64,000 nt of DNA. Origin: Acidobacteriota bacterium (GTDB lineage: Bacteria; Acidobacteriota; UBA890; WLXD01). Made by a program: the position numbers and the translations under genes. The notes below the pieces were generated by a model. That model saw nothing but the letters and a program-made list of their open reading frames with translations. It searched no databases and was not told the DNA's origin. Shown here piece after piece: positions 2,739-32,106 of the stretch (position 1 is the first letter of the stretch; each line of letters opens with the position of its first letter). The stretch covers positions 992,001 to 1,056,000 of the forward strand of contig CAXWPH010000015.1 of NCBI GenBank assembly GCA_963666055.2. The letters run 5' to 3'.

Positions 2739-4265
2739 CTATCGAGCCTGGTGCCGTAGTCCCCGTCCCGGGCGTACGCCGGTCGGTTGTCCTTCGGCCC
2801 ACACCCTTTGGCCCGCCACCCAAGTTGCGTGCACGCCCGTGGCTGACCGAAGGGGATCGGTGAAGGTGCTGTGGTCCGTAATGGTGGCGGCGTCGAATGC
2901 CACCAGGTCGGCCATGGCTCCTGGTCGGATGACGCCACGGTCGTTGAGGCCAAGGCGCTGCGCCGGCATCCTGGTGGCCCGCTCCACCGCACGCTCGAGC
3001 GACAGCAGCTCGCGCTCGCGCAGGTAGTGCCCGAGAATACGAGCAAAGGCACCTGCGCCGCGCGGATGGCCGCTGCCGACGCCGCCATCGCTGGCGGTCA
3101 TCACCAGCGGCGAGGTCATGAAGGTGTCGACATCCTCCTGGCTCATGGTGTGGCCGATGATGCCTGAGCCGCCGTTGGCCATCATTTCCATGTACATCTC
3201 GACCTCGCTCTTGCCGGCGCGGGCGGCGACCTCGCTCAGCCTCATGCCGTGAGCCGCGGGGTCCGCGTCGTAGCCGACGATCTGCAAACGCGAACCGCCG
3301 CCGACGGCCGCGAGGCCCTCCGCCACCGCGACCGGATCGTCGAAGCGTCGTGAGGGCACGATGATCCCGAGTCCCGACTGCCAGGCGGTGTAGGGGTACT
3401 GATCGGCGGTCACGTCGAGCCCCGCGACGCGAGCCGCTGCGAGCCGCCCCAGAACCGCACGCGCCTGGCCCCACACCGCGGCGTTGCCGGTCTTGATGTG
3501 AGAGATCTGTACCGGCAGCTTGCCCTCGATGCCGATGCGCAGGGCCTCGTCGATCGCCTCGAGAAGGCCGTCCTCCTCGTCGCGAACGTGCGACATGTAG
3601 AAACCGCCGAGCCCACCGGCGACGCTCGCCAGCTCGATCAGCTCTTCGGTGGTGGAGTAGTAACCGGGGTCGTATTCGAGGCCGCTCGAAAGGCCGAAGG
3701 CACCCTCCATCATCCCCTGCCGTACCCGGAGCGCCATCTCACTGACTTCGCTGGCGCTGGCGGTGCGTCGATAATCGTCCTCCAGCACGGCGCGTCGAAC
3801 GGTACCGTGACCCACGAGCGTGCCGACGTTCAGCGCTGTCGAGAGCGCGTCGATGCCGTCGAGATACTCCCCGATGGGCCACGGGGAGGAGCCGTCGGCG
3901 CCCACCACGATCGTCGTTACCCCCTGGGCGATCTGCGTCGTCGCCAGCGGGTCGCCTTGCAACCTCTCGGTGGAGTGGTTGTGGATGTCGATGAACCCTG
4001 GTGCCAGGATGAGACCAGCGAGATCGATCACCGTCAGCGCTCCCTCCGAGTCCAAGGGGCGCAACGATCCGTTTGTGCCGACGGCGGCGATGCGGTCGCC
4101 CTCGAGCAGCACCTCGCCGCGGTACGCGACGGTACCCGTGCCGTCGACGATCGTGGCACCGACGAGCAGCTGTCGGCGCGGTTCCGACTGACCCGTCGTC
4201 GCGCCGGCGACCGTGGTCGCGATGAACAGCAGGAGTGCGAGGCCGATCACACGATGACGGTACAT
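2739..4265 (-). CDS. Secreted N-acyl-D-amino-acid deacylase (D-aminoacylase) family amidohydrolase
   Basis: Signal peptide; PGFIDIHNHS, GLSSGLEY, SHVRDE, ISHIK, ADQYPY, ASDG, HPRGAG motifs. Confidence 0.88.
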   Translation of the reverse strand: MYRHRVIGLALLLFIATTVAGATTGQSEPRRQLLVGATIVDGTGTVAYRGEVLLEGDRIAAVGTNGSLRPLDSEGALTVIDLAGLILAPGFIDIHNHSTERLQGDPLATTQIAQGVTTIVVGADGSSPWPIGEYLDGIDALSTALNVGTLVGHGTVRRAVLEDDYRRTASASEVSEMALRVRQGMMEGAFGLSSGLEYDPGYYSTTEELIELASVAGGLGGFYMSHVRDEEDGLLEAIDEALRIGIEGKLPVQISHIKTGNAAVWGQARAVLGRLAAARVAGLDVTADQYPYTAWQSGLGIIVPSRRFDDPVAVAEGLAAVGGGSRLQIVGYDADPAAHGMRLSEVAARAGKSEVEMYMEMMANGGSGIIGHTMSQEDVDTFMTSPLVMTASDGGVGSGHPRGAGAFARILGHYLRERELLSLERAVERATRMPAQRLGLNDRGVIRPGAMADLVAFDAATITDHSTFTDPLRSATGVHATWVAGQRVWAEGQPTGVRPGRGLRHQAR

Positions 4266-4320
4266 GGGTCCCCTCTGGTCGCTAGGCCTGCCAGGGCATC
4301 GTCAGGCCGCGTTGCATCTC

Positions 4321-4367
4321 CCAACTCGCCGCAACCAGGCCGCCACACTTCCACCACGGCCTGCTAG
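4321..4367 (+). repeat. Dispersed intergenic repeat, MITE-end-like (copy 1 of 4)
   Basis: CAACTCGCCGCAACCAGGCCGCCACACTTCCACCACGGCCTGCTAG; near-identical at 24550-24574, 30834-30880 and, reversed, 56028-56061. Confidence 0.8.
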
Positions 4368-4456
4368 TCGACTTCTGGCGTCTCGAATACCATGGATTCA
4401 TATCCGTAAGCCTTATTTCGTCTGTTTTTCTTTTATCTGTTTTTTTCTCATACGTC

Positions 4457-7400
4457 ATGACTACGCTGCCCGCCGACCGCTTCGATGTGATCGTCGTGGG
4501 GGCCGGCCCGGCGGGTGTCACCGCCGCGATGGCCCTCGGCAGGGCCGGATTCTCGGTGCTGGTCTGCGAAGCGGGGATCTTCCCGGGGGCCGAGAACTGG
4601 TCGGGCGCCGTCTACTTTTCGGAGAACCTCGAGCATCCGGACGCCTTCGGCCGCGACATCGTCGCGGCGGCGCCGTACGAGCGCCGACTCGTGGAGCGCG
4701 GCGCCTACCTGTACAACGGCCATAGCCTCCTCGGCGCCAGCCTTCGGTCGCCCGACGTTTTCCGCTCCTGCTACACGGTTCTGCGGCCCGTTTACGACCG
4801 GTATCTGGCGGAGGTAACACGCGAGCACGGCGTCATACTCGCCTGTGAGACTACCGTTCAGAGCCTCATCCGGCATCGCGGTCGCGTTATCGGTGTTCAC
4901 ACCGAGCGCGGTCCGGCGTATGCCGATGTGGTGTTTCTCGCGGAGGGCGACGCGTCGCATCTGGTCACCCAGGAAGGCTACGAGCGGGCCTCGGAAAGTG
5001 ATCGAGCCGAGGGAGGACCGCACTTCCTGCAGGGCGTCAAGGAGGTGATCTCGCTCCCGGAGGACGTGCTCGAGGAGCGCTTCGGCTTGGAGCCGGGCGA
5101 AGGCGTCGCCTTCGAGATGCTGCTCCGCAACGCTTCGCGTAAGGGGCGCACGGCGCGGCTCAACATGGGCGGCTTCGTATACACCAACCGCGACAGCTTG
5201 TCGTTGGGGTTCGTCTTGCCGCTCGACAACCTCCGGCAGCACTTCGAAGGTGACCACAACATCCTCATGGAGTGGTTCAAGGGCTTGCCTGAGATCGCCC
5301 GCATGATCGACGGCGGCGAGCTCACGTCGTACGGCGCCAAGATTATCCGCGGCGGCGGCCTGAAGGAAATTCCACGGCTGGTCGATGACGGCCTGGCGAT
5401 CGGCGGTGCCGCCAGCGGTATCGGCCTCGATTTTCCCTATCCGAATTTCACCGGGCCGGCGACGGCGATGGGGCTGTACTTCGCCGCTGCGGTGCGTCAG
5501 ATCGCCGCCGACTCGGGCGGCCTCGGGCGCGGCGGCGATTCGACGAGATCGCCGTTCACCGAGCGGGCGCTGCGCCAGACGTATCTCGAGGCGGTGAAGT
5601 CGAGTCATTACTACCGCGGCGTGCAGCACCTGCGCGACTGGCCGGCGTACATCGAGCGCACACAGTTCTTCTTCGAACAACAGCTCGATCTGGTCAACAA
5701 CACCGCCTACATCATGTCGCGTCCGGAGCTGGGTTCCTGGGAGCGCTACTGGAGCGTGGTGCGGCTCGTGCGCCGTGTCGCCAGGGGTCGCAAGGGCTCG
5801 ATCATGGCCGATTGCCGCGACCTCGCCGGCGCCGTTGGCCTGGGCATGCTCGTTCGTGCCGCGGCCACACCGGCCAACCTGCTGCGGGTGCTGTGCAACA
5901 CAGTCGGGGCCTTCCTGCCGCGCCGATCGGGTACGCGGGTTGGTCTTGCCGAGACCTCCGACTCCGCCGTCGCACCGGCAGCCGGGGCCGGGGTGGCGGA
6001 GGCACGGGCGCATGATGGTGCGCGGCTGCGGGCCCTGTATCGCGTGATGGCGGGAGGGGAACAGCCAGGCAGGGCTCCGTGGCTGTTCCGTTGGTACTGG
6101 CGACGTTTCGGCGGCGCCTTGGCGAGCGCCTTCAGCGACGTCTACACCAACGACGACACCGACGTGGCCGACAAGCTCCGGTCGGCGGCGCGGCATCTCG
6201 CCGGCTGCCTATCGATCTGGGATGTCGCCGTCGTCGCGGGCGCCGGTGCTGTCCTCATCGCAACCAGCTTGAAGCAGGCGGCCACCGAGTGGTTCCAGCA
6301 CTCGGTGCTGCGCTGGGAGCCGCGCCGCTTCGGCGAGCAGCTCACCAACCGGTTGCTGGCCGACAACCACGAGCGCATCCGCCTCGATGACGATCACGTT
6401 GCCATCACCACCACCTACGAGGCGAAGCTGGGCACGATCACGTACCAGGCCGGCCGCCATTCCCACATCAAGGTGATGTGGCCGGCGCAAATCGCCGACC
6501 GGAACAACCTGTCGTCGTCGGCGCTGTGGAACATCTGTCCGGCCAAGGTCTACGAGGTGCGGCGCAACTCGGCGGGCCAGCCCGGGGTGGTGGTCAACTA
6601 CGAAAACTGCATCAAATGCGAGAGTTGTTGGCGGGTGACGGGCGATGTGCACTGGAGCCGCGCCACCCAGCAGCGGCTCATCTATCAGACCTACACACCG
6701 GCGCAGCAGGAGCTCCACGCCTACCTCGTCGACCGGCCCGAGCCACAACCGCGTCTGGGATCACGACCGGGGTTCCTGCCGGCGCTGCTGGATAGCGTTC
6801 GGGATGCCGATGCGAGCGCCCCGCCGGGGCCATCCCACGCCGCCACGCGAGCCCGGCTGGAGCGCGCACGCGCGGCGCTGCGTTGCTATCGCGCCGATCT
6901 GGCGCGTTCTCCGTCGGCGTTGGAAGAGGGGCGTCGCGGCCATCTCCGTGCCCTCCTGGTGGCCGCCCGCGATGCCTTCATTGATGCCCGCCGCACCTGG
7001 GAGGCCGCGACGAGCGATGCGGGCAGCAGTGCCGCGACAAGGTTGCTGACACCCGTCTGGGACGACGCGGCGGAGCGTCTCGAGCAGATGCAACAGCATG
7101 CCGAGGCGCACAGGTTCTTCTGGGCCGATGTGCTCGCCCGCCAGCTCGAGGACCATCATTTCACCGCCATCTTGGCAGTCTGCGGCGCCGCTGCCGCGCG
7201 GGTCGACACCGATGTCGGTGTGAGCGACGACCTGTGCATCAAGCAGCAGCTCGAGGCGGTCGAGTGGCGGCGTCGGGAGGCGGAGCCGCGCAACTTCGAG
7301 GCCAGTCGCCGAGAGGTGCGCGAGGGCTGCAAGCGCTGGTTCGACAACCACGCGGTACGCGCCCTGGAGCGCGGGGAGCCGCTGTCGGCCGGACAGGCCG

Positions 7401-10400
7401 ATTGGCTGCGGGACCAGATTGCTGCCGCACGGCCGCGGCGGGACGGCTACGGGCTTCGGGAGGTGGTACTCGAAGAGCTGGCGGCGACTGACCCGGCGCT
7501 GGCGCTGATCGCGGCGTCGCATCTGCTCGCGGTCGACCTGTTGACGCAGGCCGGTACCCAGCATGCCGAGCTGCAGGAGGCACGCGTGGTTGCCGCGACC
7601 ATCCATGGTGGCCAGCGCGCCGCACGCTGCCTGCAAGGCGGCGGTTTCGAGATCGATGTCTGTGCCGACTTCGTTCCCACCGCGCTCGCGCAGCGCTATC
7701 TCGTAGTCGTCGGCAGCGACGGCTTCCTCATTGATGCCGATGATCCGCGGCTGGTGATCGAGGACGTCGGCAGCGTGGGCCTCATCGGCGCCCGCATCCG
7801 GCGCCCGCGCGGCGGCCACATCACGGTGCCCGCAGCGCGGCGCATCGACCTTTCGGGAGTGGTCGACGAGGTCGTGCTCGAGGCGCCGGCGGCCGGAGAG
7901 CCCTGGGCCGCGGTGCTCGGCGTGGCGCTGCCCGGCTACCTGGCGATGGTTCGCGGATCCGGAAGGTACCTGCTACAGCGTGCCCGCGAGCACGCCGCCG
8001 GGCGCCTGCAGTTCCCCGGTGCGTTCGAGGACGAGGCCGGCCGAGACACTATCGCCAAGTTTGGTGCCGTCAAGCAGATGCTGGCCGAGATGGAGGTGCA
8101 CCGCTACGTGCTCGAGTCGATAACGCTAACCAATCCGGGCGGCGGCGACGAGTGGACCGGGCAGGCTGCTAGCAAGGTGCTGGCCAGCCAGGCTTTCGGC
8201 CCGGGCGATCGCTCCTTCAGCTACAACACCGGTCAGATCTTCGGCGGCACCGCTTTTTCGGAAGACGACGACATCGCCAAGTACTACCGCGACAGCGCGC
8301 CGTGCCGATTTCTGCTCGGTCACGACGACGCGTTGCGCGTGCAGGTCGGGCGGCGCCGGCTAACCGCCGCCCGATCGGGTGGCGATCTGATCCCGTGCAG
8401 TGACGCCGAGCATCGGTGGGCGGCACGCGCCGCGGAGCATGCCTTGCTTGGCGAGCCGGCACGACGCTACCAGGCCGCGCGTCTGCAGACCGAGGAGTGG
8501 GCGAGCGGCCTTGGCCGTGCCGACGATGATCTGACCGCCTACGCTGCCGGCAACATCGTGATCGAGGTGCTTGCCGCCAGGAGCTTGCTGGTGCGGTCGA
8601 TGCGTCGGATTTACGCCGGCATACCGACCGAGGCGATGGTCGAGGCGACGCGGTTGGTTGTGGATCGGCTCGGCGCCGAGCTTCCCGCCTTGATCGAGGC
8701 GGCCGATCTGGCGCCGACGACGCTCATTGCAGGCGACGAGTTGCTCGAGAATGGCGATTTCGCGGCGGTGTCGATCCCGGATGCCGAGTCCTACGAGAGC
8801 GTCTACACCGCCGATCAGCCGCATGAATCTGGTGAGTGGCTTCGCGATGGCTTCGACCCCGCGTCGCCTCGCTGCGTGCCCGAGATACTGGCCCACGACC
8901 CGGCGCTGGCGCGTTATCGGAAGCAGCTAGAGACCGAGCTGCGCCAGCGTTTCGAGGTGCCGAGGTTCGACGGGCTGCCGTACGGGCGTTATCTCGAGAA
9001 GCTCCACATGATCCCCGACGAGGACCTTGACTACATGGTCAGGCGGGGCTTCATGCGCATGCCGATTGCCCGGCATCTCGGCGGTGAGGGAGCCTTGAAA
9101 GCGGAGTACTACATCCTCTCCATGCTCATCGGCCGCTACGGCGACGCGGCACTATCGTTGGCCATCATGGGCAACACGAGCATCGGTACGACGCCGGCGC
9201 TCATCGGCCTGTACCAGGATTTGCCACGCGCCCGCGCCGAGCTCGAGCGCGTGCGCCAGCATCCCGAGGTGCTCGGCGACATCCGTGACCGCATCGACGG
9301 CGTGCTGGCGATGTTGAGACGGCCGAACACGGAAGCGCTTGCTGCGGCGACCACCGAGATCGGTTCGCTGGTCAACAAGCGCGTCGCCAAGTCGATGGTG
9401 TTGAAGTCTCTCGGTGGCGGTTTCTTGCGGGCGTTCCAGGCTGCGGTACGGGCCGGCCAGCAACGCGATCTCGAGAGCTTCGGCACGCACCTGCGCGAGG
9501 CGCGCGAGCTCCTCGATGACGTCCTCGGTGCCGTCGAGGAGCGCCTCGCGGAGTACCCGCGCCGGCAGCGCGCCCACGAGCTCTTCCTGAAGACGATCTC
9601 CGCCGGCTACATCTCGGCGTTCGCGCTTACCGAGCCTACTGCCGGGTCCGATTCCGGAGGCGTGAAAACCATGGCGCGCGCCGCGCGGCGACGCCTACAC
9701 CGCGACGATGACGGGGTGCTGTGGTTCTGGCTGGACGAGGAAAACGAGCTCGAGCGACGCAACCTGCTCGACGCGGATCGGCTGGAACACGACTACGACG
9801 AACGCCGGTTGCTCTATCGCTTCGCAGACGATGCCGCGCCGGCGCACGTCGATCATTCCGAGTACGACTACGACAAGGACGCGCCGGAGCGAACACGCTT
9901 CTATATGCACGGTGCCCGTAAGGTGCAGTTCAGCGACATCGGCCAGCTGCGAACCGACGCCGCCGGTAACTCTTTCTACGAGTACTGGGTGCTCAACGGC
10001 GCCAAGATGTGGATTACGAACGGGCGCTTCTGTCATTGCATGGCGCTGTACGCACGCACCGAGCCGGAGGGCGTGACCGGGTTCATGGTCGACCGGCACG
10101 CCGAAGGGCTCGTCGTGGGAGCCGATGAGGAAAAGCTCGGGCAGCGTGGCTCGCCGACCAACGAGCTGTCACTCAACAACGTCCGTGTGCCGCACGAGGC
10201 GATCATCGGTTTCCGCGGCCGGGGTCAGGTCAACGCGCTCGAAACCCTGAACACCGGGCGTGCAGGATTGGCGGTGACCACCCATTCGACGATCGCGGAG
10301 CTCGCCGACGATGCGATTCCCTATCTGCGCGGCGAGGTCGCCCCCGGCTTCGAGTACTCACCGCGCGCCCCGGCTCGCCCGCTGGAGCGATACTGGATGG

Positions 10401-13165
10401 GGCGTGTTGCCGAGGAGCTCGTGGGGACCGCGTCGGTCACCTACGAGATGATCGGGTTGCTCGACAACAAGCACACTGACTCGGTGCGCATGGAGTCGGC
10501 AATCGGCAAGTATTACTGCACCGAGTCGGAGCACGACTGCATCGACTGGATGGAGCGGGCGCGCGGGCTCGAGGGCCAGACCTGGCTGCACCGCGTCGAG
10601 AAGACGCGGCGCGACGCTCGCGTGCTGAATATCTACGAAGGGACCAACGAGGTGCAGCGCTTTCTGCTGCTGAAAGACCTCGTCCAGCGCGTGCTGCCGC
10701 AGTGGCAACGCGGTGCCGGCGGTCTCGAGGGGCACGAGCTCGCCTATCCGGAGCTGGTTGCGGCGCTCGGTCAAGCCAGGCAGCGGTTGCTCCACCACGT
10801 CGAGGGCGCGGTGGAGAGCTTCGGTCAGCTGGTCTGGGCGAATGTCGGGTTGCAACCGTGCTTCTTCCGCTTGGCCGAGGTCGCCGGGCTGACCAAGGTG
10901 ATGGACGCAGTGCTCTACCGACTCGAGTGGAACGCACGGCACCAAGTCCCAGCCGAGCACCGGGCGCGTCTCGAGCGCGCCTCGCGGCTGGTCGTACAGC
11001 GCGCTGTTTCCCGCATCGAAGCGCTCGAGCGACGCTACGAGATCGCCCTGGCGTATCTCGTGGAGGGGCGGTACTCGCCGGAGACGCAGCTGGGATGTTT
11101 ATCTTTGGAGGAGACTGGAGCGCCGGCCGAGGGCTGGGGTCTCGTGCCCGACGATCTGATCGAGCAGCGGCAGCAGCCCGATCTCGCCCGCGACGTCGAG
11201 ATCGCCGTCTTGCTCAAATCGGTACCGGCGACGGCGCCGCGACCAAGGCTCGGCGATGGCGAGTTCGCCGAGCCGCTCCACCTTATCAATCCGGCGGATG
11301 AGGCTGCCCTGATGGCGGCGCTGACGCTCAAGAAACGCGATCCCGGACGCATCAAGGTCAGCGTCTACACGGTGGCGAGCGCCGCAGGAACCAGCGTCGT
11401 ACGTGCGGCACTCGCACTTGGCGCCGATCATGCCGTGCATCTCGATTCATCCGCCACCAACGGCGTTGGCTCGGCGCCACACGACGGGGACTACGTGACA
11501 CGTGTGATCGTTGCCGCGTTGAGTCGTCGACCCGCCGACCTGGTGGTCTGCGGCGCGCGCGCCGCCGATACCGGCCAAGGGGTGGTGCCCAGCTACCTGG
11601 CCGCGGCGCTGGGCAGCAAGGTCTATGGCGGCGTCGAGAGCCTGCGCTGGGGCGATGGCGCCGCCACGCGTCTGGAGATAGCCGCTGCCTCGTGGGAAGG
11701 CCACGAGCTTTCGGTTCGGCTCCCATGCGTTGTCGCAACCCTGCCGCGGCTCGGCGAAGCCGCCGACTACGATCTCGGCGCCTGGCTGAACGCTGCGACC
11801 GTCGAGATCGAGTGTCTCTCGGCCGCCGACCTGGTCGGGGATCTAGCCACGGTGTGTGTTCGTCATCGTGCGCGAGCGGTGGCAAGCAGCAACCGAGGCG
11901 ATTTACGCGTCGACTCGCCCGAGGATGCGGCCGGTGTGCTGCTCGATGTAGCCGGATTCGGAGCTGCGGCGACCGACCCGGCCAGAGCCTACGAAGATCG
12001 GATGTTGTCGATGGGTGAGCAGCCCGGCGACGACGCTGCCGGGAGCTGTCTGTTCGTTCTGGAGCCAGTCGGCGCCGAGCTCCCCGCAAGCGCCAACTCC
12101 GACCTCCGCCTCGCTGGCGATCTCGCCGACGGCGTTGGCATGGTGCTCGATGTGGTCGTACCCGTCGATACCGATCAAATTTCCGCGGGGATCGTGGCGG
12201 GCTCCGTGCTGGCCGCTGTGAGACCGCGTCGGCTGTACGTCGTAGCGCTGGTCGGAGTGGCTGGCTTCAGCGCCCATGGCCATCTCGAGTGGCTCGAGGA
12301 GTTCTGGGCGATGTATCGCGGTGAGCCCCGATGGCTGCTTGCGGCAACCTGGGCGAACGAGCTGTTCGCCCGCTTTGTGGTCGGCGGCGTTGCGAACACC
12401 GGAGCAGCCAGCGTTGCGGACACCGAGGCCGGTCGCTGCTGGAGCTGGCACAACGTCGAGTCAATCTCCAATAGCGACGGACACGCCCGCGTCGCTACGC
12501 GAATCTATGGGGGCGCAGCTCGTGCGGAGGCCGAGTTTCCGCTCGAGGGCGGCCTCCGCGTCCTCACCTTGGGGAGGACGGTGGAGCTCGATCTCGACGG
12601 TGGACGGAAGGTGGCTGAACGGGAGCACGAACCGCAGGTCTATCGGTGGTCGCCCGATTTGGAGTACGACCCCCGCGACGATCCGCTGGCCCGATTTCTA
12701 GCGAGCTTGGCGGGCGATAGGGACACTCTGCAGGACGCCGAGATCATCATCGACTTCGGCTACGGCGCCGGCGGTCGAGAGGGTATCGATGAGCTCGCCG
12801 AGCCGCTGCGGCAGCTGCTCGTCGATGAGATGGGCCTGCGCAACGTGATGATCGGGGCGACGCGAAAGGTGACACAGGACCTCGAGTTGCTTCCCGCCGA
12901 TCGCCAGATCGGGCAAACCGGTATATCGGTGAACCCGAAGCTGATCATTGCACTGGCGGTATCCGGTGCGCCGCAGCACGTTGATTACATCGGTGACCGA
13001 GCCGTAATCCTGTCGTTCAACGTTGACCCTGGCGCCCCGCTGATGAAGCTCAACGAGCAGCGTAAGGTACCCGTCGTGCATCCGATCGTCGGTGATGTCT
13101 GGGATACCGTGCCGCGGTTTGTCGAGGCGATTCGAGAGCACCTTCGCAAGGCGCGTCTGGCCTGA
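4457..13165 (+). CDS. Giant fusion: FixC/ETF-QO flavoprotein + 4Fe-4S module + degenerate ACAD + intact ACAD + ETF-beta + ETF-alpha (2902 aa)
   Basis: VIVVGAGPAG/FPGAENWSG (FixC-like); CPAKVYE...NCIKCESC (~6536-6628); RLQF...FGAVKQMLAEM and QIFGG...YYRD (ACAD1); FALTEPTAGSD, LNGAKMWITNG, KLGQRGSPT, IYEGTNEVQR (ACAD2); INPADEAAL, ALALGAD, GARAADTGQGVVP (ETF-beta); RQIGQTG...SGAPQH (ETF-alpha). One uninterrupted frame. Confidence 0.9.
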   Translation: MTTLPADRFDVIVVGAGPAGVTAAMALGRAGFSVLVCEAGIFPGAENWSGAVYFSENLEHPDAFGRDIVAAAPYERRLVERGAYLYNGHSLLGASLRSPDVFRSCYTVLRPVYDRYLAEVTREHGVILACETTVQSLIRHRGRVIGVHTERGPAYADVVFLAEGDASHLVTQEGYERASESDRAEGGPHFLQGVKEVISLPEDVLEERFGLEPGEGVAFEMLLRNASRKGRTARLNMGGFVYTNRDSLSLGFVLPLDNLRQHFEGDHNILMEWFKGLPEIARMIDGGELTSYGAKIIRGGGLKEIPRLVDDGLAIGGAASGIGLDFPYPNFTGPATAMGLYFAAAVRQIAADSGGLGRGGDSTRSPFTERALRQTYLEAVKSSHYYRGVQHLRDWPAYIERTQFFFEQQLDLVNNTAYIMSRPELGSWERYWSVVRLVRRVARGRKGSIMADCRDLAGAVGLGMLVRAAATPANLLRVLCNTVGAFLPRRSGTRVGLAETSDSAVAPAAGAGVAEARAHDGARLRALYRVMAGGEQPGRAPWLFRWYWRRFGGALASAFSDVYTNDDTDVADKLRSAARHLAGCLSIWDVAVVAGAGAVLIATSLKQAATEWFQHSVLRWEPRRFGEQLTNRLLADNHERIRLDDDHVAITTTYEAKLGTITYQAGRHSHIKVMWPAQIADRNNLSSSALWNICPAKVYEVRRNSAGQPGVVVNYENCIKCESCWRVTGDVHWSRATQQRLIYQTYTPAQQELHAYLVDRPEPQPRLGSRPGFLPALLDSVRDADASAPPGPSHAATRARLERARAALRCYRADLARSPSALEEGRRGHLRALLVAARDAFIDARRTWEAATSDAGSSAATRLLTPVWDDAAERLEQMQQHAEAHRFFWADVLARQLEDHHFTAILAVCGAAAARVDTDVGVSDDLCIKQQLEAVEWRRREAEPRNFEASRREVREGCKRWFDNHAVRALERGEPLSAGQADWLRDQIAAARPRRDGYGLREVVLEELAATDPALALIAASHLLAVDLLTQAGTQHAELQEARVVAATIHGGQRAARCLQGGGFEIDVCADFVPTALAQRYLVVVGSDGFLIDADDPRLVIEDVGSVGLIGARIRRPRGGHITVPAARRIDLSGVVDEVVLEAPAAGEPWAAVLGVALPGYLAMVRGSGRYLLQRAREHAAGRLQFPGAFEDEAGRDTIAKFGAVKQMLAEMEVHRYVLESITLTNPGGGDEWTGQAASKVLASQAFGPGDRSFSYNTGQIFGGTAFSEDDDIAKYYRDSAPCRFLLGHDDALRVQVGRRRLTAARSGGDLIPCSDAEHRWAARAAEHALLGEPARRYQAARLQTEEWASGLGRADDDLTAYAAGNIVIEVLAARSLLVRSMRRIYAGIPTEAMVEATRLVVDRLGAELPALIEAADLAPTTLIAGDELLENGDFAAVSIPDAESYESVYTADQPHESGEWLRDGFDPASPRCVPEILAHDPALARYRKQLETELRQRFEVPRFDGLPYGRYLEKLHMIPDEDLDYMVRRGFMRMPIARHLGGEGALKAEYYILSMLIGRYGDAALSLAIMGNTSIGTTPALIGLYQDLPRARAELERVRQHPEVLGDIRDRIDGVLAMLRRPNTEALAAATTEIGSLVNKRVAKSMVLKSLGGGFLRAFQAAVRAGQQRDLESFGTHLREARELLDDVLGAVEERLAEYPRRQRAHELFLKTISAGYISAFALTEPTAGSDSGGVKTMARAARRRLHRDDDGVLWFWLDEENELERRNLLDADRLEHDYDERRLLYRFADDAAPAHVDHSEYDYDKDAPERTRFYMHGARKVQFSDIGQLRTDAAGNSFYEYWVLNGAKMWITNGRFCHCMALYARTEPEGVTGFMVDRHAEGLVVGADEEKLGQRGSPTNELSLNNVRVPHEAIIGFRGRGQVNALETLNTGRAGLAVTTHSTIAELADDAIPYLRGEVAPGFEYSPRAPARPLERYWMGRVAEELVGTASVTYEMIGLLDNKHTDSVRMESAIGKYYCTESEHDCIDWMERARGLEGQTWLHRVEKTRRDARVLNIYEGTNEVQRFLLLKDLVQRVLPQWQRGAGGLEGHELAYPELVAALGQARQRLLHHVEGAVESFGQLVWANVGLQPCFFRLAEVAGLTKVMDAVLYRLEWNARHQVPAEHRARLERASRLVVQRAVSRIEALERRYEIALAYLVEGRYSPETQLGCLSLEETGAPAEGWGLVPDDLIEQRQQPDLARDVEIAVLLKSVPATAPRPRLGDGEFAEPLHLINPADEAALMAALTLKKRDPGRIKVSVYTVASAAGTSVVRAALALGADHAVHLDSSATNGVGSAPHDGDYVTRVIVAALSRRPADLVVCGARAADTGQGVVPSYLAAALGSKVYGGVESLRWGDGAATRLEIAAASWEGHELSVRLPCVVATLPRLGEAADYDLGAWLNAATVEIECLSAADLVGDLATVCVRHRARAVASSNRGDLRVDSPEDAAGVLLDVAGFGAAATDPARAYEDRMLSMGEQPGDDAAGSCLFVLEPVGAELPASANSDLRLAGDLADGVGMVLDVVVPVDTDQISAGIVAGSVLAAVRPRRLYVVALVGVAGFSAHGHLEWLEEFWAMYRGEPRWLLAATWANELFARFVVGGVANTGAASVADTEAGRCWSWHNVESISNSDGHARVATRIYGGAARAEAEFPLEGGLRVLTLGRTVELDLDGGRKVAEREHEPQVYRWSPDLEYDPRDDPLARFLASLAGDRDTLQDAEIIIDFGYGAGGREGIDELAEPLRQLLVDEMGLRNVMIGATRKVTQDLELLPADRQIGQTGISVNPKLIIALAVSGAPQHVDYIGDRAVILSFNVDPGAPLMKLNEQRKVPVVHPIVGDVWDTVPRFVEAIREHLRKARLA

Positions 13166-13211
13166 TTCACGGGGCCAGATCGCTGCGCGCCCCGCCGTCC
13201 AGATCGACCAT

Positions 13212-15404
13212 CTATTGCCAGCCGATGGCGATGTAGAAGCGGTTCCGGTTGCCTTCGGCCCAACCGTAATCGAGCTGCAGCGGCCCGATGGGGGTGGCCA
13301 CGGTCAGACCCAGCCCGCCGCCGACGATGGTCGTTTCGACGCTGATATCCGTGCGGCGCTGCCAAACACCGCCCGCCCCGAGACGCCCGTAGAGTCGAGC
13401 CACTGAAGCGAAGTCGATCCCCAGCTCCCCGGAAGCCGCCAGCGCCTGGTTGCCCCATAGCTCGTCGCGCGCCAGCCCGGGGACGAGCTCCGGGCCGCCG
13501 ACGCGGAACTGGTCGTAAATCGGTAGCGTTGATGAGGAGTATCCGTACAGCAACCGCCCTGTGAGGTTGACCCCGCCCAGCTGTACCGCACTGATGCCAT
13601 CGATGCGTACCCGCCAGTAGGGCGACGAGCCACCCAGACCCTCGAGATTGCGCTCCGCCTGTACCGAGTAGCGGTGCCCGCGAACCGGCGCGGCGAGCGA
13701 GCTGAGGCTGTCCCACACGTAGTTGGCGGTCAGCACGCGGTGCGGTCGTGTTTCAGCAACGTATGGAATGCCGAGGCGCTCGATAGTCTCAACCTCACCG
13801 GCGCGGACACCCAGCTGCAGCAGATGGTTAAAACCGAACGGCAGGTTGGCGCGCAGTGCCACGTGCCGGCGGCGAAACTCAGCCCTGGAGACGAACTCTC
13901 CCGCCTCGAAGACTTTCGGCTTCTCCTGGTGCAGCTCGACGTCGACCAGGTATCCGACGTGCGCGCCCAGGAACTGCTCGCCGTGCAACCGCACATCGAG
14001 CCTCAGATCCTTGGCGCTGGCCGCGCCGCCGACCTGCAGTCGATCACCGGGGCCGAATAGACTGCGGGTCTCGAAACGCACCATCGCCTGCGCCTGATCA
14101 TCGCTCTGGTATGCGAGGCCGAGGTCGACCGTGTGGCGGTATTCCTCCTGCACGAACAGGAGCAGCCGGATGCCGTTGGGGCCATCGGGCGCGAGGTCGA
14201 GCCAGGCACTCTGCAGGAGTCCCGAGGCGTACAGATGATCGAGGTCGGCGAGCGTCTGTTGCCAATCGAAGACCTCCCCGACATGCGCCCGAAATTCACG
14301 CCGGATGGCGCGGTCGGACAGGTACACGTTGCCGGTCACTTCCACGCCTCGCACAACGCGCTGGCCGAAGGCATGGTGATCGGTCGGGCTCCGTGTCACT
14401 AACGGGCGCCGCTTGAAGCGCTCCGGGATGCTGTCGAGTGCCGCCTCGGCGGCCTTGCGCCCAGCAGCGATCAGCTCGTCGATACGCGAGTAGTCAGCGA
14501 AGCTATGGCCCTCCAGGTCGGGCACGATGGTGACGTCGGCGGCTTCGCCGTAGCGGCTGTTGGTCGCCGCGGAGAGCAGATCGATGATGCGCTCGGTTAC
14601 CCCGAACAGGTCGGGGTTCACTGATTCGTCGATCGGAGTTGAGGCATCTACCGCCAGCGTGAACTCGGCCCCCATCTCCTTTGCCAGACTCACCGGGACG
14701 TTGTCGGCGAGCCCACCATCGACCAGCAGCGCCCCCTCCCAGGGCACCGGAGCATAGGCCAGCGGTACCGACATGCTGGCGCGAACGGCGCGCGCCAGGT
14801 CGCCTGCCAAGAGTTCCACGCGATCGCCGGAGAGCAGGTCTGTGCCGAGTGTGCGGAACGGAATCGAAAGCGCATCGAACTGCCGCCCGGCGTCGAAGTT
14901 GGCCGGCGCCAGGTGCTCGATCAGCAGACGATTCGCCATGTTGTCGCTCAGCAGGCTGCGCGGCGCGCGCAACCCATCTACGGTGATGCCGAGGCGGGCG
15001 CCAGCGCGTTGTCGCTCTAGTCGATGGAGAAGCGGCCGCAGCCGGCGGTTGTGAGAGTCGATGTACATGGTGCTCCAGCTCAGTCCCGACAGCAGGGCCT
15101 TGATCGCGGCATGCGAGTGGCCGGTGGCGTAGAGCGAGCCAATCACTGCTCCCATGCTGGCCCCGACGATGCAATCGGGCCGCACGCCATGTTCCTCGAG
15201 CACTTGCAGAACGCCCAGATGGGCAATGCTGCGCGCTCCACCGCCACTCAGCACCAGTCCGAGCCCGCAGGCAGAGGCATTCTCCGGCGTTCCCTCGGCA
15301 GGATTCTGCGCTCGCAGCTCGCCGGCAGCCAGAGTTCCGGGCAGCAAGACGCCCAGGAACCGGGCTGTCAAGAGCACCGAGCACCAAGCCGTGCGGTGCC
15401 TCAC
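13212..15404 (-). CDS. Patatin-like phospholipase with POTRA and BamA/TamA-type barrel (PlpD / type Vd-like)
   Basis: LSGGGAR, GASMG and DGG patatin motifs; POTRA-like VEVTGNVYLSD; barrel end FYIAIGWQ. Start placed at GTG 15404 in front of a signal peptide rather than the track's 15752. Confidence 0.88.
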   Translation of the reverse strand: MRHRTAWCSVLLTARFLGVLLPGTLAAGELRAQNPAEGTPENASACGLGLVLSGGGARSIAHLGVLQVLEEHGVRPDCIVGASMGAVIGSLYATGHSHAAIKALLSGLSWSTMYIDSHNRRLRPLLHRLERQRAGARLGITVDGLRAPRSLLSDNMANRLLIEHLAPANFDAGRQFDALSIPFRTLGTDLLSGDRVELLAGDLARAVRASMSVPLAYAPVPWEGALLVDGGLADNVPVSLAKEMGAEFTLAVDASTPIDESVNPDLFGVTERIIDLLSAATNSRYGEAADVTIVPDLEGHSFADYSRIDELIAAGRKAAEAALDSIPERFKRRPLVTRSPTDHHAFGQRVVRGVEVTGNVYLSDRAIRREFRAHVGEVFDWQQTLADLDHLYASGLLQSAWLDLAPDGPNGIRLLLFVQEEYRHTVDLGLAYQSDDQAQAMVRFETRSLFGPGDRLQVGGAASAKDLRLDVRLHGEQFLGAHVGYLVDVELHQEKPKVFEAGEFVSRAEFRRRHVALRANLPFGFNHLLQLGVRAGEVETIERLGIPYVAETRPHRVLTANYVWDSLSSLAAPVRGHRYSVQAERNLEGLGGSSPYWRVRIDGISAVQLGGVNLTGRLLYGYSSSTLPIYDQFRVGGPELVPGLARDELWGNQALAASGELGIDFASVARLYGRLGAGGVWQRRTDISVETTIVGGGLGLTVATPIGPLQLDYGWAEGNRNRFYIAIGWQ

Positions 15405-15453
15405 GTAGAGCCCGCTGCTGTTGACGCGAGCGACCCGTGACGGGCGTATCGCG

Positions 15454-15678
15454 TCAACGCTGGTAGGCAATGATGAGGAGCTTGCCGCTCGACCCGACCT
15501 GAAATTCCACGCCGTTGTCGGTGAGCTCCGCGATGGTGCGCTCGTAGTCGGCGCGGTCGCCGTAGGACAGCACGAGGCTGTCGCATCTGTCGCAGCAGGC
15601 GACCCGGCGGCGCTTCGCGAGGCTACGCGAAGCTTCTTGCTGACAACAATCGGCGAGAGCTTCCATGGTAAGTCGCAT
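15454..15678 (-). CDS. Small Cys-containing hypothetical protein (74 aa)
   Basis: Protein-like composition with DCC and CCDRC; fills the gap upstream of the patatin gene in the same orientation. Confidence 0.55.
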   Translation of the reverse strand: MRLTMEALADCCQQEASRSLAKRRRVACCDRCDSLVLSYGDRADYERTIAELTDNGVEFQVGSSGKLLIIAYQR

Positions 15679-15737
15679 TCCATGACGCTGCCGGCAGTCG
15701 TGGCCGGCGGCTCGGTTCCGTTGATAGTATCGGAGCC

Positions 15738-16820
15738 ATGCGTACCGGCCATGTTGTCCCAGGGTCCTTGCTGTTGCCCGCCATCGCAGGCGCCCTAGCG
15801 CTCGGTTTCGTCGCCGCCAGTGCCGGCCTGGCGCGCCCCCAGGCTCTGCGGACAGACTCGGCGTTCGGCTTCAGGGTCGGTGAGGAGCGTCGCTATGTTC
15901 TCGGTCCTCCCGACGCCCTGGCAAGCGGCGAGGTGGCCGAGTGGTGGATCGTGTTCGACGGGCTCGTGGAGCAGGGCGACACCAGGCTCGCCGACTTCAG
16001 CTTCGGACACGAACGCCTCGAGCGGATCCCGGGGGCCTTGCGGGCGTCGGAGCAGCTCATGAGCGTGCAGGTGGAAGGTCACCTTCAGGTCACGCTGGAC
16101 GGATTTCCGGTGCGCGTGGAGTTCGAACAGCGCTTCGCCCAACGCGGCGAGAACCTTGCCGTCGACAGTCGACGCCACGTCGTCTTCACCTACAACAAAG
16201 AGGACAAGCGATTCCGCAAGGACCTTAGAATTGGCACCCGCGACTGGGATTTCAAGGTCAGCATTCCCGGCTACCGGAACATGGATCTCGACAAGCCGCG
16301 GGGCCTGTACGCCTGGATGCCATCGGCGCTGGCGTGTCTGGGGAGTGGGCGCAGGATATGCGTCGAGACAGACCCGGCGTTCGCCAACCCGGGGTTGCTG
16401 AGCATCGCCCTGCCGGCGCTGTTCGAGCACATCGATCCCGCCGGCGACGCCAAGAAGGTCGAGCGCGAGTTCATGTTCTTCATGCCTGCCGGGATCCCTG
16501 AGTCGCCATTCCGACCCGTGGGCGTAGGGAATTGGATGGCGCGAGAGCGCGACAACTTCGCCAATCGCGACCGCTACTTCGACACCTGGAAGCTCAAGCT
16601 CGGGCCCAGCACTGACGTGGAGGTCGGGCCGCGGACGATGCACGCGTGGGAGCTCGATGTCGGCTATGGAATCGACCAGGCGTACGTAGAGCCGGGCGGA
16701 CGCGTGGTGCGCGTCGATCTGGAAGCCACGATGGATAATGACAAGCGCTGGATCCGGCTGTTGTTCGCCTCGGAGGAGTTCACCTCGCCCGATGACCCGG
16801 CGCAGCGTTGCTGCCGCTGA
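15738..16820 (+). CDS. Secreted hypothetical protein
   Basis: GGAG RBS, signal peptide, 360 aa beta-rich sequence; no family recognised. Confidence 0.75.
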   Translation: MRTGHVVPGSLLLPAIAGALALGFVAASAGLARPQALRTDSAFGFRVGEERRYVLGPPDALASGEVAEWWIVFDGLVEQGDTRLADFSFGHERLERIPGALRASEQLMSVQVEGHLQVTLDGFPVRVEFEQRFAQRGENLAVDSRRHVVFTYNKEDKRFRKDLRIGTRDWDFKVSIPGYRNMDLDKPRGLYAWMPSALACLGSGRRICVETDPAFANPGLLSIALPALFEHIDPAGDAKKVEREFMFFMPAGIPESPFRPVGVGNWMARERDNFANRDRYFDTWKLKLGPSTDVEVGPRTMHAWELDVGYGIDQAYVEPGGRVVRVDLEATMDNDKRWIRLLFASEEFTSPDDPAQRCCR

Positions 16821-24726: not shown

Positions 24727-27048
24727 CTAGGCGTCGAGAGGCTCGTCGGCGTCGGCGAGGGCCCCCTCGCCGTTGGCGCCGTTGCTTATGTCGCGATGCC
24801 AGACGAGCAAGCCGGGCAGCAACACCACAGCTGTCAACCAGGTGCACAGCAACCCGACGACCGCCAGCAGGCCGATCGAGCGCAACCCGGGATGATGTGC
24901 GAAAGCCATCCCGGCGTATCCCATGATTGTCGTCAACGTTGCCACGGTGATCGGCTCGAAGAGCTCCAGTTGAGTTGCGGCCGTATCGCCGTCGAGCTCT
25001 CGCCAGCGCCGGTAGTAGTGCACTCCGTGATCCACTCCGAGACCGAGCAGCGTTGGCAGCACCACCATATTGAAGAAGTTCACCCGCCATCCGAGAGCGA
25101 TCACGGCGCCGAAGGTCAACAGCAGGCTCGCTACCAGCGGTACTAGCACCCAGGCCGCCTGGTTCACGTCACGACGGTCGATGACCACCAGGATGAAGAC
25201 GCCAAGGAACGTAAGGACAACGATGAGTGGCCCCTCGCGCGTGACTAGCCAGAGGATCTCCGCCAACACCGGCTTATCGCCCGTCGGACCAAGGATGCCG
25301 GCGGGCAGCTCCAGGTCGTAGAGCTCGCGCGTGAAACGCATTGTTATGACGCCGTCCTTGCCCGGACCGGTGGCGTGCAGTCCCAGGATGTAGGCGCCGG
25401 AGCCGTCCAGCGTGACCATGTCCTGCAGCACCGACTCCGGCAGGTCCTCGACCTGCGGCAGGTTCTCCGGCATCTCGAAGCCGAGCACATCCTCGATGAC
25501 ACGGATGCGCTCCGGGTCCTCGACGCGACGTACCCATCGCCGAGCGAGCATCTCCTGGATCAGTGCCAAGGAGTCGCGCCGCAACTGCACCTCAGCCTCA
25601 TCGGGGGCGAAGTCACGCACGCTCGCGACTCGCCCGATCACCGATCCCGGCTCCGCTGCGGTACTGGCGATCAGCGCCAGCATCTCGTCGAGCGCCTCGA
25701 GGTCCTCGGCGACGTAGATCGCCGAGGGCCCGAAGAAGATCGGGTACACTTCCTCCTGTTTCTCGCGGATCGCGTCGAGCTCCTCTAGGTTGGCGCTGAA
25801 GTTGGCAAAGTCGTAGTCGAACTCGAGCAGGAACGCCGAGGCATAGGCCGAGACAATTACCAGCGTGCTCAGCAGAGCGGCCGACCAGCTCGGAGGGATT
25901 GCCAGTCGAGCACTCGGATAGCGCGGCGCGCTCGGCGTAACCAGGCCGAGTCGATGGCCGGCGCTCAACGTTGCCGGCATCACCAACAGCATGCACGCGG
26001 TCACCACCAGGATGGCCGTACCGCCAATCAGCCCGAAGTCGGAGAAGCCTCGGAAGCCCGATACCGCCAGGATGAACAGCCCGAACGACGTCGTAAGCCC
26101 CGAGGTGAAGACCGAGCGCCCGGTAGAGGTGAAGGTCTCGGCGAGCGCGACCTCCGGTGGCTGGCTGAGGATCTCGTGTCGGAAGCGTTTCACCAGGTGA
26201 ATGGAATAGTCGACCCCCATGCCAAACAGCACCATCAGCAGGAACGAGGTGATGGTGTTGAGATCGCCGACCAGATCGGGCACGAAGGCGAACGCCCATA
26301 TCAAGCCGGCCGCGATCGGATACAGCAGCACCGGAAGCACGCGCACCGACCGGAAGCTGATCGCCAGCGTCAACAGAATAGCCGCCGCCGCTACCGCGCC
26401 AGTCCGGGTGACGTCGGAGACGATGACGTCGAATTCCTCCACCCGCGTGCGCAGCGAGCCGCCGATGGAGACGACCACCCCAGCGGCGCCCGCCTCCTCG
26501 CTGGCGATGCTATCGATGCGCTGGTAGAGGTCTCGCAACCCGGTCAGGTCGGTCAGACCTTCGCTGGTCCTCAGGATCACTCCGTACATCGTGTCGTCGG
26601 CGTCGCGGTGGTACTCGGGTAGCTCGCTGTACAGCCGCACGATGCGCTCGAGATCAGATTCCTCCTCGCTTGCCGAATCGTCGAGATCGTCGAGGAACGG
26701 GTTTACCTCCGCTTCCCAGTCCTCGATCGTCTCGATAGCTGTCTCGAGCTGATCGGAAGGCACGAGACCGTAGCGGTAGCGCTCGACGAATTCGGTCGGG
26801 TAGCGGTGGTTGATATCGGTGATCTCCTCGAGCAATTGCAATCGCGCCACCGTGTGATCGACTGCCCTCTTGAGCGATTCGGGGTCGCCGTGCTCGAAGA
26901 TGAGGCTGAAGTACCCGCCGTCGCCGACCAGTGGCTCCAAGTCGCGACTCCATTGCACCGCCGGGCTGTCCTGTGGCAGCAGCCGCGTCAGGTCGGAGTC
27001 GAGGCCGAGAGTGCGCGCCCGCATGAACGCCGGGACAGTGAGCAGCAC
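24727..27048 (-). CDS. MMPL/RND family lipid transporter (HpnN-like); true start uncertain
   Basis: Two TM repeats with GMGVDYSIH and GLGVDHGVH motifs; LDSDLTRLLP after TM1. Confidence 0.88.
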   Translation of the reverse strand: MLLTVPAFMRARTLGLDSDLTRLLPQDSPAVQWSRDLEPLVGDGGYFSLIFEHGDPESLKRAVDHTVARLQLLEEITDINHRYPTEFVERYRYGLVPSDQLETAIETIEDWEAEVNPFLDDLDDSASEEESDLERIVRLYSELPEYHRDADDTMYGVILRTSEGLTDLTGLRDLYQRIDSIASEEAGAAGVVVSIGGSLRTRVEEFDVIVSDVTRTGAVAAAAILLTLAISFRSVRVLPVLLYPIAAGLIWAFAFVPDLVGDLNTITSFLLMVLFGMGVDYSIHLVKRFRHEILSQPPEVALAETFTSTGRSVFTSGLTTSFGLFILAVSGFRGFSDFGLIGGTAILVVTACMLLVMPATLSAGHRLGLVTPSAPRYPSARLAIPPSWSAALLSTLVIVSAYASAFLLEFDYDFANFSANLEELDAIREKQEEVYPIFFGPSAIYVAEDLEALDEMLALIASTAAEPGSVIGRVASVRDFAPDEAEVQLRRDSLALIQEMLARRWVRRVEDPERIRVIEDVLGFEMPENLPQVEDLPESVLQDMVTLDGSGAYILGLHATGPGKDGVITMRFTRELYDLELPAGILGPTGDKPVLAEILWLVTREGPLIVVLTFLGVFILVVIDRRDVNQAAWVLVPLVASLLLTFGAVIALGWRVNFFNMVVLPTLLGLGVDHGVHYYRRWRELDGDTAATQLELFEPITVATLTTIMGYAGMAFAHHPGLRSIGLLAVVGLLCTWLTAVVLLPGLLVWHRDISNGANGEGALADADEPLDA

Positions 27049-27467
27049 GGTGAGCCCGATCCACAGGAACGCGAACCGATGCGACCAACGGCAGACCGCG
27101 CTGATCCCCCGGTAGAAGATCGTGCGCTCGCGAGCGGTGCGACGCTGGAGTTTGCAGCTTGTCGGTCACGGGCGGATGGGTTGGGCGGGCTTGTCGTACG
27201 ACCAGCCGACAGCGCAAGCGGCAGACAGGCCATGCCCGCTAACGGTCGTGACGGGCGTCGATCGCGCCGGAAACGCGCGGCTCACCTTTCAAGGCTCTAG
27301 GAAGGGTTCGCAGGCGTCAAGCCCAGGCTTGTGCGACGGCGCTAGGCGCACCCGAGGTGGCATGCTGGCGAAGCTGCCGAACTCTGCCACTGCGCGGCGC
27401 GATGCTACGCTTAAGCTGCCGTCCCGAACGTAAACTGACCCTCCAGCCAGATCCGTTAGGAGACCCC

Positions 27468-28892: not shown

Positions 28893-29484
28893 CCTCGTGA
28901 CGTCGGTGCTCTTTCTGGGCGTGATAGCGGTTGGCCAGGCCGCGGAAAATATCACCACCCCGATGGAGACGGTCCGCGCGTCGAACGAGGCGATTTCCGC
29001 CATTCTCGCGGAGCATGACCCTCTCGATGCCGAGGGGGAGGCACGTGTCTACCAGGTCATGAACGACGTCACCGACTTCGCAACGATGTCGACCGGCGCG
29101 ATCGATGAGATCTGTGTGGAGCACGAGCTGACCGACGAGAAGTGCGGTGAGTGGAAGACCGTCTTCGGTGATTTGCTACGCATTCGTTCCATAAAGGGGG
29201 TGGGCCGCTACCGAGCGGACCGCTTCGACTACCTGAACGAGGAGATCGACGGCGAGCAAGCGGTGGTCAACACCCTGGCCTACTTCGAGGGCGACGACAT
29301 TGCCCTCGACTACGAGCTCATGCTACGCGACGACCGGTGGCTGATCGTCAACTACGTCGTCGACGACGTTGACACCGCTCGTAGTTGGAGCCGCCGCTTT
29401 ATCCGCCTGCTGAGGACCGAAACCGTCGACGATGTTATTCGGCGGCTGCGGGACCGGATCGAGGAGTTCCACACGGACTCCTGA
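28870..29484 (+). CDS. MlaC/Ttg2D/HpnM-like periplasmic lipid-binding protein
   Basis: Signal peptide; TDFATMS, ALDYEL...WLIVNYVVDDV, F..LL....DDVIRRLR match the MlaC pattern. Confidence 0.8.
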   Translation: MAKSSSTSLVTSVLFLGVIAVGQAAENITTPMETVRASNEAISAILAEHDPLDAEGEARVYQVMNDVTDFATMSTGAIDEICVEHELTDEKCGEWKTVFGDLLRIRSIKGVGRYRADRFDYLNEEIDGEQAVVNTLAYFEGDDIALDYELMLRDDRWLIVNYVVDDVDTARSWSRRFIRLLRTETVDDVIRRLRDRIEEFHTDS

Positions 29485-29600
29485 TTCCGCGTACGCGGCA
29501 CCCGGACGTCGTCAACCAGGCCAGGATCTGAAGGCGTGCCCGGCGCGAAGCGTGTTTTGCGCCCGGCTGTCGACGCTCTTCTCGAGCGAGCGAGACCGAA

Positions 29601-30833: not shown

Positions 30834-30893
30834 CAACTCGCCGTAACCAGGCCCGCCACACTTCCACCACGGCCTGATAGGCTCGACCTACGC

Positions 30894-32033: not shown

Positions 32034-32106
32034 TGTCGGCCGGTCACCTGCTTGCTGTTGCGTTTGATCCTGGGCGGCGCTCCTGCCGCACCCGTCGAGG
32101 AATCTG

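Follow-up and report, generated by a model that had tools for sequence, protein, structure and literature searches.

The window analysed here is a 64,000-nucleotide stretch of DNA from an Acidobacteriota bacterium (assembly GCA_963666055.2, contig CAXWPH010000015.1, positions 992,001 to 1,056,000 of the forward strand). Within it, the gene P0001 (4457..13165, plus strand) was found to encode a protein of 2902 aa in one open reading frame (ORF), seen in assembled contigs and containing zero internal stops and zero N. To judge from its sequence, this polypeptide combines parts that usually work as four or five separate proteins; its modules are, in order, a flavoprotein of the FixC/electron transfer flavoprotein–quinone oxidoreductase (ETF–QO) type, one 4Fe-4S module, a pseudo-acyl-CoA dehydrogenase (pseudo-ACAD), an ACAD, EtfB, and EtfA. 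The fusion is probably a membrane-attached, non-bifurcating acyl-CoA:quinone oxidoreductase, likely catalysing the first step of fatty acid β-oxidation. The architecture is real, conserved, and apparently undescribed, and the chemistry of each step is known.

Domain architecture of the fusion protein

Pfam, NCBIfam, and PDB matches bore out the initial annotation, which had described an unbroken ORF with FixC, Fe-S, ACAD, ETF-beta, and ETF-alpha modules in that order. Pfam matches to P0001 comprised an FAD oxidoreductase (residues 10–151), ACAD M (1826–1909), ACAD C (1921–2072), ETF (2277–2457), and ETF_alpha (2758–2842, E 7.5e-15). Fer4_ETF_QO at 667–724 (23.6 bits) and ACAD N at 1511–1580 (22.6 bits) fell slightly below their cut-offs of 24 and 22.9, respectively. 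NCBIfam FixC and PRK10015 aligned to residues 6–408 with scores under their cut-offs, and the top PDB sequence match was Thermotoga maritima FixC (7koe_C, E 1.7e-33). The G+C content at third codon positions (GC3) is 0.75–0.90 across every module of the gene.

Homologues were collected in a protein search covering lengths of 1,596–5,079 aa and the best 7,987 candidates, which yielded 119 clusters at E <= 1e-20. The 113 sequences of at least 2,300 aa, P0001 included, were aligned, and 7 shorter ones were excluded. Every module was present in 108 of the 113; the fusion is thus not confined to one genome, whereas its absence from all other genomes was what the initial annotation had named as counting against it. 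The motif counts given below are over these 108 sequences.

The FixC/ETF–QO-type domain (residues 1–420; 4457..5716), predicted to hold the quinone-reducing FAD, was assigned from its sequence and fold matches to 7koe_C. An AlphaFold model of residues 1–1190 (65 sequences; pLDDT 86.9, pTM 0.81) matched 7koe_C with Z 36.0 and a root-mean-square deviation of 2.3 over 425 residues, and its residues 1–745 matched porcine ETF–QO (2gmh_A) with Z 30.8, which confirmed a FixC/ETF–QO flavoprotein fold with an FAD-binding motif. The region that follows (421–650; 5717..6406) is helical in the model, with basic amphipathic helices and zero Pfam matches. It includes a hydrophobic helix at 584–602 (window 6206–6262) with a 19-residue hydropathy of 2.05, a value that exceeds 1.6 in 89 of the 113 aligned sequences, and this region likely attaches the protein to the membrane.

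The four-cysteine Fe-S module reported in the initial annotation (CPAKVY...CIKCESC; 6407..6700) is present at C694, C718, C721, and C724. These cysteines are invariant (108/108) and align to C42, C61, C64, and C67 of EtfX in 7koe_D (numbering counted from the alignment), of which C61 and C64 are assigned to the proximal cluster of T. maritima EtfX in the relevant part of PMC10734219. The ligands of the distal FixX cluster were absent in the alignment to 7koe_D, so that the module does not have the two clusters of FixX. Given also the fold match to 2gmh_A, it is predicted to be the equivalent of the proximal cluster of FixX and of the cluster domain of ETF–QO. The linker behind it (6701..7291) has no family match and is modelled as a four-helix bundle at about 790–914; residues 750–945 returned zero Pfam matches, and their PDB matches were weak and unrelated.

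Distribution of the fusion across bacterial phyla

A pattern scan of GTDB gave 397 matches, 195 of which were confirmed, and the best 80 of these are referred to here as the GTDB loci. Grouped from record titles, and all from metagenome bins, they fall in the Planctomycetota (18), Gemmatimonadota (18), Nitrospirota (17), Acidobacteriota (14, two of them unlabelled), Verrucomicrobiota (9), and Betaproteobacteria (4). A single ORF from FixC to EtfA was scored at 45 loci, 3 are frameshifted within the gene, and 32 are partial, mostly truncated by contig ends, and three of the partial loci are single ORFs of 2,836–2,926 aa. In the frameshifted loci (L040, L052, and L057), and also in L005, the shifts lie elsewhere than at 1444/1445. 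One locus, L072, was considered as an N-terminal half on its own and rejected as an assembly break, as it ends at an N gap with the other half about 26 kb away.

Closer to the source genome, 22 of 25 relatives from the same order carry the fusion, whole or in pieces, as compared with none of the 15 relatives that belong to other families in the phylum (40 relatives in all). The closest named relatives, at 80% identity, are labelled Acidobacteriota. Database records name the fusion proteins merely as 'acyl-CoA dehydrogenase' or 'ETF-QO', which amounts to mis-annotation. This assembly has a second copy of the fusion (G000:C14:524191-532941), but the idea that it is a paralogue was discarded: its DNA is 92% identical to that of G012, a genome of another family, versus 68–78% to genomes of the same genus. 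The copy, within G000:C14 at about 517000–584537 (L091, L092), has the same neighbours; the end of that contig looks foreign and repeats other genes at 50–70% identity, and the copy is likely to represent a chimeric contig or a large transfer.

Two divergent groups were also noted. P0112–P0120 form a subfamily of 2,330–2,440 aa with the same architecture, one member being labelled Acidiferrobacter, and make up the longest branch in a FixC-domain tree of 52 rows. A reduced clade of 1,330–1,510 aa has kept FixC, the cysteines of the FeS module, and helical remnants of ACAD, without the catalytic ACAD core and ETF. Its five JGI proteins (P0137, P0149, P0184, P0187, and P0188; 1,419–1,507 aa) form one clade nested in the full-length proteins in the same tree (support 100/94), and four further loci encode the reduced form (L130:4306-8475, L135:5657-9820, L136:94-4101, and L137:9998-13999). 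The reduced form was considered as a possible partner subunit of the fusion. It is read instead as a reduced orthologue, because it was not found in any of 10 genomes that carry the full-length gene and because the L135 copy occupies the same fadD–fadA–fadB position.

Complementary motifs in the two ACAD modules

The initial annotation had counted two ACAD modules. Both are indeed ACAD-derived, and the motif counts indicate that only the second is catalytic and that the first is a pseudo-ACAD. Module 1 (946–1444; 7292..8788) was recognized by motifs, profile, and fold: scanned alone it matches Pfam ACAD_C at E 8e-6, it matches a very-long-chain acyl-CoA dehydrogenase (VLCAD) profile at E 7e-12, and its fold is ACAD-like (Z 19–20 over model residues 932–1190). 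RxQF (R1183) and QxxGG (Q1260–G1264) are each found in 108/108 sequences, whereas TEPxxGSD and GxKxWIT are found in 0/108 and the catalytic-loop [YFWGP]EG in 1/108, a count taken at the J–K loop rather than at helix G, where LCAD and IVD carry an alternative Glu. Module 2 (1445–2229; 8789..11143), identified from Pfam, PDB, and motif matches, shows the converse pattern, with TEPxxGSD, GxKxWIT, and the catalytic Glu of the J–K loop (E2061 in IYEGTNE) each in 108/108 and RxQF and QxxGG each in 0/108. The placement of the catalytic Glu in ACADs was taken from part of PMC11153573.

An alignment of one module to the other across the C-domain and extension (HHalign 89%, E 2e-6, 240 columns) shows them to be homologous. 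Module 2 matches 3owa, C-terminal extension included, at E 1e-24; the extension of module 1 is weak alone. Both modules are accordingly assigned by sequence to the long, VLCAD/ACAD9-like class of about 590 aa, and module 2 carries in addition two large family-specific insertions, at about 1591–1700 and 1741–1838. In MCAD-type structures (medium-chain acyl-CoA dehydrogenase), each subunit uses RxQF and QxxGG to contact the FAD bound by its partner, and the complementary motifs are therefore distributed as a pseudo-dimer with one site predicts. CasC offers a parallel, since excerpts of PMC8399759 describe two fused ACAD domains with the Glu in the C-terminal domain only and the N-terminal domain needed for FAD binding. 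By analogy, modules 1 and 2 likely form one active site.

Genomic context and the link to β-oxidation

At 10 of the 80 GTDB loci, and at 10 of 51 metagenome loci, fadD, fadA, and/or fadB lie upstream of the fusion on the same strand, and at these loci the fusion would supply the sole missing step of β-oxidation. The source genome has a fadD–fadA–fadB operon on another contig (G000:C3:178726-184074, L170), unlinked to the fusion and with no adjacent ACAD; its FadA (53.5%) and FadB (39%) are the genome's best matches to the fusion-linked operon of L063, making the operon a candidate pathway partner. Of the 22 relatives that carry the fusion, 18 have FadA of this type, as do 4 of the 18 that lack the fusion, these kin not being independent. 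Taken together, the linked operons and the assignment to the long ACADs make a medium- or long-chain acyl-CoA the most likely substrate.

Several observations weigh against this assignment. In the window the fusion gene is solitary, flanked by a divergent amidohydrolase gene and a convergent patatin–Omp85 gene, and these neighbours, together with a prephenate dehydrogenase-like gene, are not β-oxidation genes. An upstream fad gene is missing from 70 of the 80 GTDB loci, the positives belonging mostly to one Gemmataceae-like clade; the 70 largest clusters of neighbouring genes at the 80 loci included no neighbour conserved across phyla and are lineage-specific except for generic families and the fad genes. 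Four relatives (G011, G013, G023, and G024; three near-complete or good genomes and one partial) have the fusion and lack C3-type FadA at the cut-off. The source genome has 15 PF00441 matches, of which 3 lie in copies of the fusion, leaving roughly a dozen further genes of the ACAD family; it also has two stand-alone ETFs (EtfA genes) and a separate fixCX, so that another protein could serve as FadE for the C3 operon instead. As regards the protein itself, the quinone-binding Pfam family ETFQO_UQ-bd gave a weak match (E 0.026, under the cut-off), a non-bifurcating ETF is countered by top sequence matches to bifurcating ETFs (6fah, 5ol2, and 7koe), which may reflect ancestry, and the loss of the catalytic ACAD core and ETF in the reduced clade implies that the parts are separable in some lineages.

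The initial annotation had further proposed a dedicated acyl-CoA substrate and insulation from housekeeping ETF. Both proposals agree with this genome, which has stand-alone EtfA genes and a separate fixCX, and neither extends to the family as a whole: the fad operon context points to general β-oxidation, and of five distant metagenome-assembled genomes (MAGs), which are possibly incomplete, four gave no ETF_alpha match besides the fusion. Insulation is thus lineage-dependent at best. The same evidence bears on an alternative that we consider unlikely, though deserving of some weight, namely that the wiring is as described and the substrate is specialised (a branched, aromatic-derived, steroid-like, or carrier-bound acyl thioester), which would make the fusion a side-pathway enzyme apart from housekeeping ETF. 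The presence of stand-alone ETFs and numerous ACADs alongside the fusion in genomes of this order, the solitary position at most loci, the occurrence of pseudo-dimeric ACADs in steroid pathways, and the two insertions in module 2 would all fit such an enzyme. On the other hand, fadD, fadA, and fadB were the only functionally related neighbours found, and the fusion holds the sole EtfA match in four of those five distant genomes.

The direction of electron flow is not fixed by the architecture, and the N-terminal module is nearer to FixC than to ETF–QO by the Z scores above, features in keeping with a chain run in reverse, in which quinol would drive enoyl-CoA reduction as with E. coli CaiA and FixABCX. 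Menaquinol is reducing enough for this reaction. The linked operon, however, encodes acyl-CoA ligase, thiolase, and FadB, the set expected for degradation of free fatty acids, and reversal is regarded as quite improbable by comparison with oxidation of acyl-CoA to quinone.

The ETF part and absence of bifurcation signatures

A model of residues 2230–2902 (pLDDT 89.5, pTM 0.88) matched both ETF subunits and confirmed a three-domain EtfB/EtfA fold with an FAD-binding domain II. The EtfB-like domain (ETF domain III; 11189..11896), assigned from Pfam, fold, and motifs, has eroded nucleotide-site motifs. Canonical (group 1) ETFs bind AMP between domains I and III; in the fusion, the AMP-site motif G.Q[AS].D occurs in 0/108 sequences and the looser G..[AS].D in 43/108, P0001 itself keeping INPxD and GxxAxD. 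The N-terminal domain of EtfA (ETF domain I; 12014..12691) was delimited by model and profile. The FAD-binding domain of EtfA (ETF domain II; 12719..13141), matched by Pfam ETF_alpha, has G2800, R2803, QIGQ, SG, and PQH invariant (108/108).

The site of the bifurcating FAD (Bf-FAD) is described, in the portions of PMC6764259 and PMC10734219 drawn on here, as involving D93, T94, T97, and G127 in EtfS and an Arg in EtfL, with Arg140 of T. maritima crucial for bifurcation according to the latter. The corresponding signatures DTxxT, D[GS]DT, and RPxFGG were found in 0/108 sequences each. In a profile alignment, the equivalent of Arg140 is Thr2681 in P0001 and Thr or Ser in most homologues. With the bifurcation signatures absent and only the proximal cluster of FixX present, a plain relay from ACAD to ETF to quinone is likely. 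A fused electron-bifurcating FixABCX or Etf–Bcd system that also reduces ferredoxin from NADH, to which the bifurcating top matches of the ETF part might point, is very improbable in view of these signatures, of the missing distal cluster cysteines, and of a domain I/III interface that is the least conserved part. The initial annotation had named FixABCX among the sets of separate proteins that normally form such a chain; the fusion does not belong to the bifurcating FixABCX class.

Assembly check and a natural split allele

Contigs spanning the full gene were checked in four sequencing runs (X1, X2, X3, and X7), and three more (X4, X5, and X6) were examined at 8300–9300. Contigs from X1 and X2 cover window 4200–13400 unbroken with 0 differences; X7 gave only fragments across the gene, and X3 spans it in full with a 2-nt deletion at 8789. 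At 8300–9300, X5 is intact, X4 repeats the deletion, and X6 breaks at 8788/8826. X3, X4, and X6 come from the same sample, and the deletion thus from one sample. X1 and X2 are possibly the source reads of this very DNA, and independent support for the reading frame therefore comes from the homologue family. The check for stops or frameshifts at the junctions, suggested in the initial annotation, accordingly gave a divided answer: the family and X1, X2, and X5 are intact, and one strain is frameshifted between the ACAD modules.

The site of the split (8781..8826, plus strand) lies exactly between pseudo-ACAD and ACAD. On loss of the 2 nt at 8789, the ATG at 8781 enters frame with the ACAD–ETF half, and the N-terminal half stops at the TGA at 8824. 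The split products, FixC–FeS–pseudo-ACAD and ACAD–EtfB–EtfA, also occur as proteins on another contig of 2.55 Mb: P0213 (1455 aa) corresponds to residues 1–1444 plus 11, and P0212 (1460 aa) to Met-Pro plus 1445–2902. The deletion may have produced either a functional two-gene form or a defective gene. That the long ORF itself arose through misassembly or belongs to a gene in decay, as could be argued from the frameshift at the ACAD1/ACAD2 boundary in 1 of 3 samples with spanning contigs and from every carrier seen being a MAG, is scarcely credible, since more than 100 full-length clusters, down to 33% identity, keep a single frame and invariant cofactor residues, and for the fusion family this reading is already refuted.

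Other features of the window and of related loci

The patatin–Omp85 gene (13212–15752, minus strand), which we take to be PlpD-like, converges on the fusion and adjoins it in close relatives too. Directly upstream of the fusion gene, an intergenic repeat of about 70 bp (window 4301–4370) has 332 BLAST matches in the genome; no σ70 promoter or terminator match was found in window 4200–4520. Further along, window 24727–33090 encodes an MMPL transporter, an outer-membrane efflux protein, MlaC, a pyridoxal phosphate-dependent (PLP) aminotransferase of class I/II, and an NAD epimerase, with one ORF (30894–32033) that has zero Pfam matches; this arrangement presumably resembles the Spt–bCerS–CerR bacterial ceramide cluster. 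In the Gemmataceae-like clade, the fusion is followed, on its own strand, by ORFs of about 560 aa that look alike (L118:18675-20357, L122:18738-20417, L125:15042-16805, L127:18970-20697, L132:18790-20526, L135:10030-11730, and L063:18601-20280), the L063 copy giving zero Pfam matches at 1e-10.

Discussion

The claim that a complete ACAD–ETF–FixCX chain lies on one polypeptide is supported by the domain matches and by its conservation across many genomes. In the proposed mechanism, the two ACAD modules of the chain would pack against each other as a pseudo-dimer sharing one FAD site, an arrangement suggested by the motif pattern. To this site module 2 would contribute the flavin-ring motifs and the base E2061, and module 1 RxQF and QxxGG. 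Following established ACAD chemistry, E2061 would take the α-proton and FAD the hydride. The FAD domain of EtfA would then carry single electrons from the ACAD flavin to the 4Fe-4S cluster by swinging from one to the other, as in canonical ETFs; the cluster would reduce the FixC FAD, which would in turn reduce membrane quinone, as in FixCX and ETF–QO. A stronger form of this proposal, in which the fusion is a self-sufficient single-chain acyl-CoA:quinone oxidoreductase whose tethered ETF flavin domain shuttles in cis, so that one gene replaces FadE, EtfA, EtfB, and ETF–QO, strikes us as evenly poised between right and wrong.

ETF makes transient contacts with ACAD and with the quinone reductase, and its flavin domain has to travel from one partner to the other. 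A natural one-chain version would allow both docking states to be studied in one particle and channelling in cis to be tested directly. Were the in-cis machine real, the split variant and the clade reduced to a FixC–FeS scaffold would mark the interfaces that hold it together. The fusion may also explain the link between β-oxidation and respiration in several uncultured lineages where no separate etfAB was found.

The initial annotation knew of no characterised complete fusion. No description of one was found in the open full-text literature, a scope outside which most subscription papers fall; only partial fusions were encountered there, EtfB–EtfA and ferredoxin–EtfA being published examples (part of PMC12042025).

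Set beside known systems, the fusion appears to follow the same path as the canonical ACAD–EtfAB–ETF–QO chain of mitochondria and proteobacteria (2gmh, 1t9g, and 2a1t), from ACAD FAD to ETF FAD, 4Fe-4S, FAD, and quinone, and resembles it in the match of residues 1–745 to 2gmh_A and in the absence of bifurcation signatures. The canonical chain consists of four polypeptides, whereas the fusion is one, with a reductase closer to FixC, an eroded AMP-site motif in its ETF, and an ACAD that is likely a pseudo-dimer with one site. E. coli has the same gene set (ACAD, EtfB, EtfA, FixC, and FixX) in YdiO with YdiQRST and in CaiA with FixABCX, as operons of five separate genes with a conventional single-module ACAD. 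With Fix/EtfABCX of T. maritima (7koe), the fusion shares the FixC fold and the ligands of the proximal FixX cluster; it differs in lacking the distal cluster, Arg140, and the Bf-FAD motifs, in having ACAD in place of NADH as electron partner, and in being fused. CasC of Rhodococcus jostii and the heteromeric ACADs of the ChsE4–ChsE5 type likewise have two ACAD units, with the Glu confined to the C-terminal unit and the N-terminal unit used for FAD binding (PMC8399759), a likeness of motif pattern that includes complementary FAD motifs. The ACADs of the fusion differ in being long, VLCAD-like, and embedded in an electron-transfer chain, and steroid genes were not seen among the recurrent neighbours scanned. 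SaETF, a fused EtfB–EtfA, has the same order of EtfB then EtfA in one chain; it differs in being a bifurcating ETF and in having ACAD and FixCX partners encoded by separate neighbouring genes (PMC12042025). Taken together, the sequence comparisons suggest that the fusion would work like a canonical ACAD–ETF–ETF–QO chain built from Fix-type parts.

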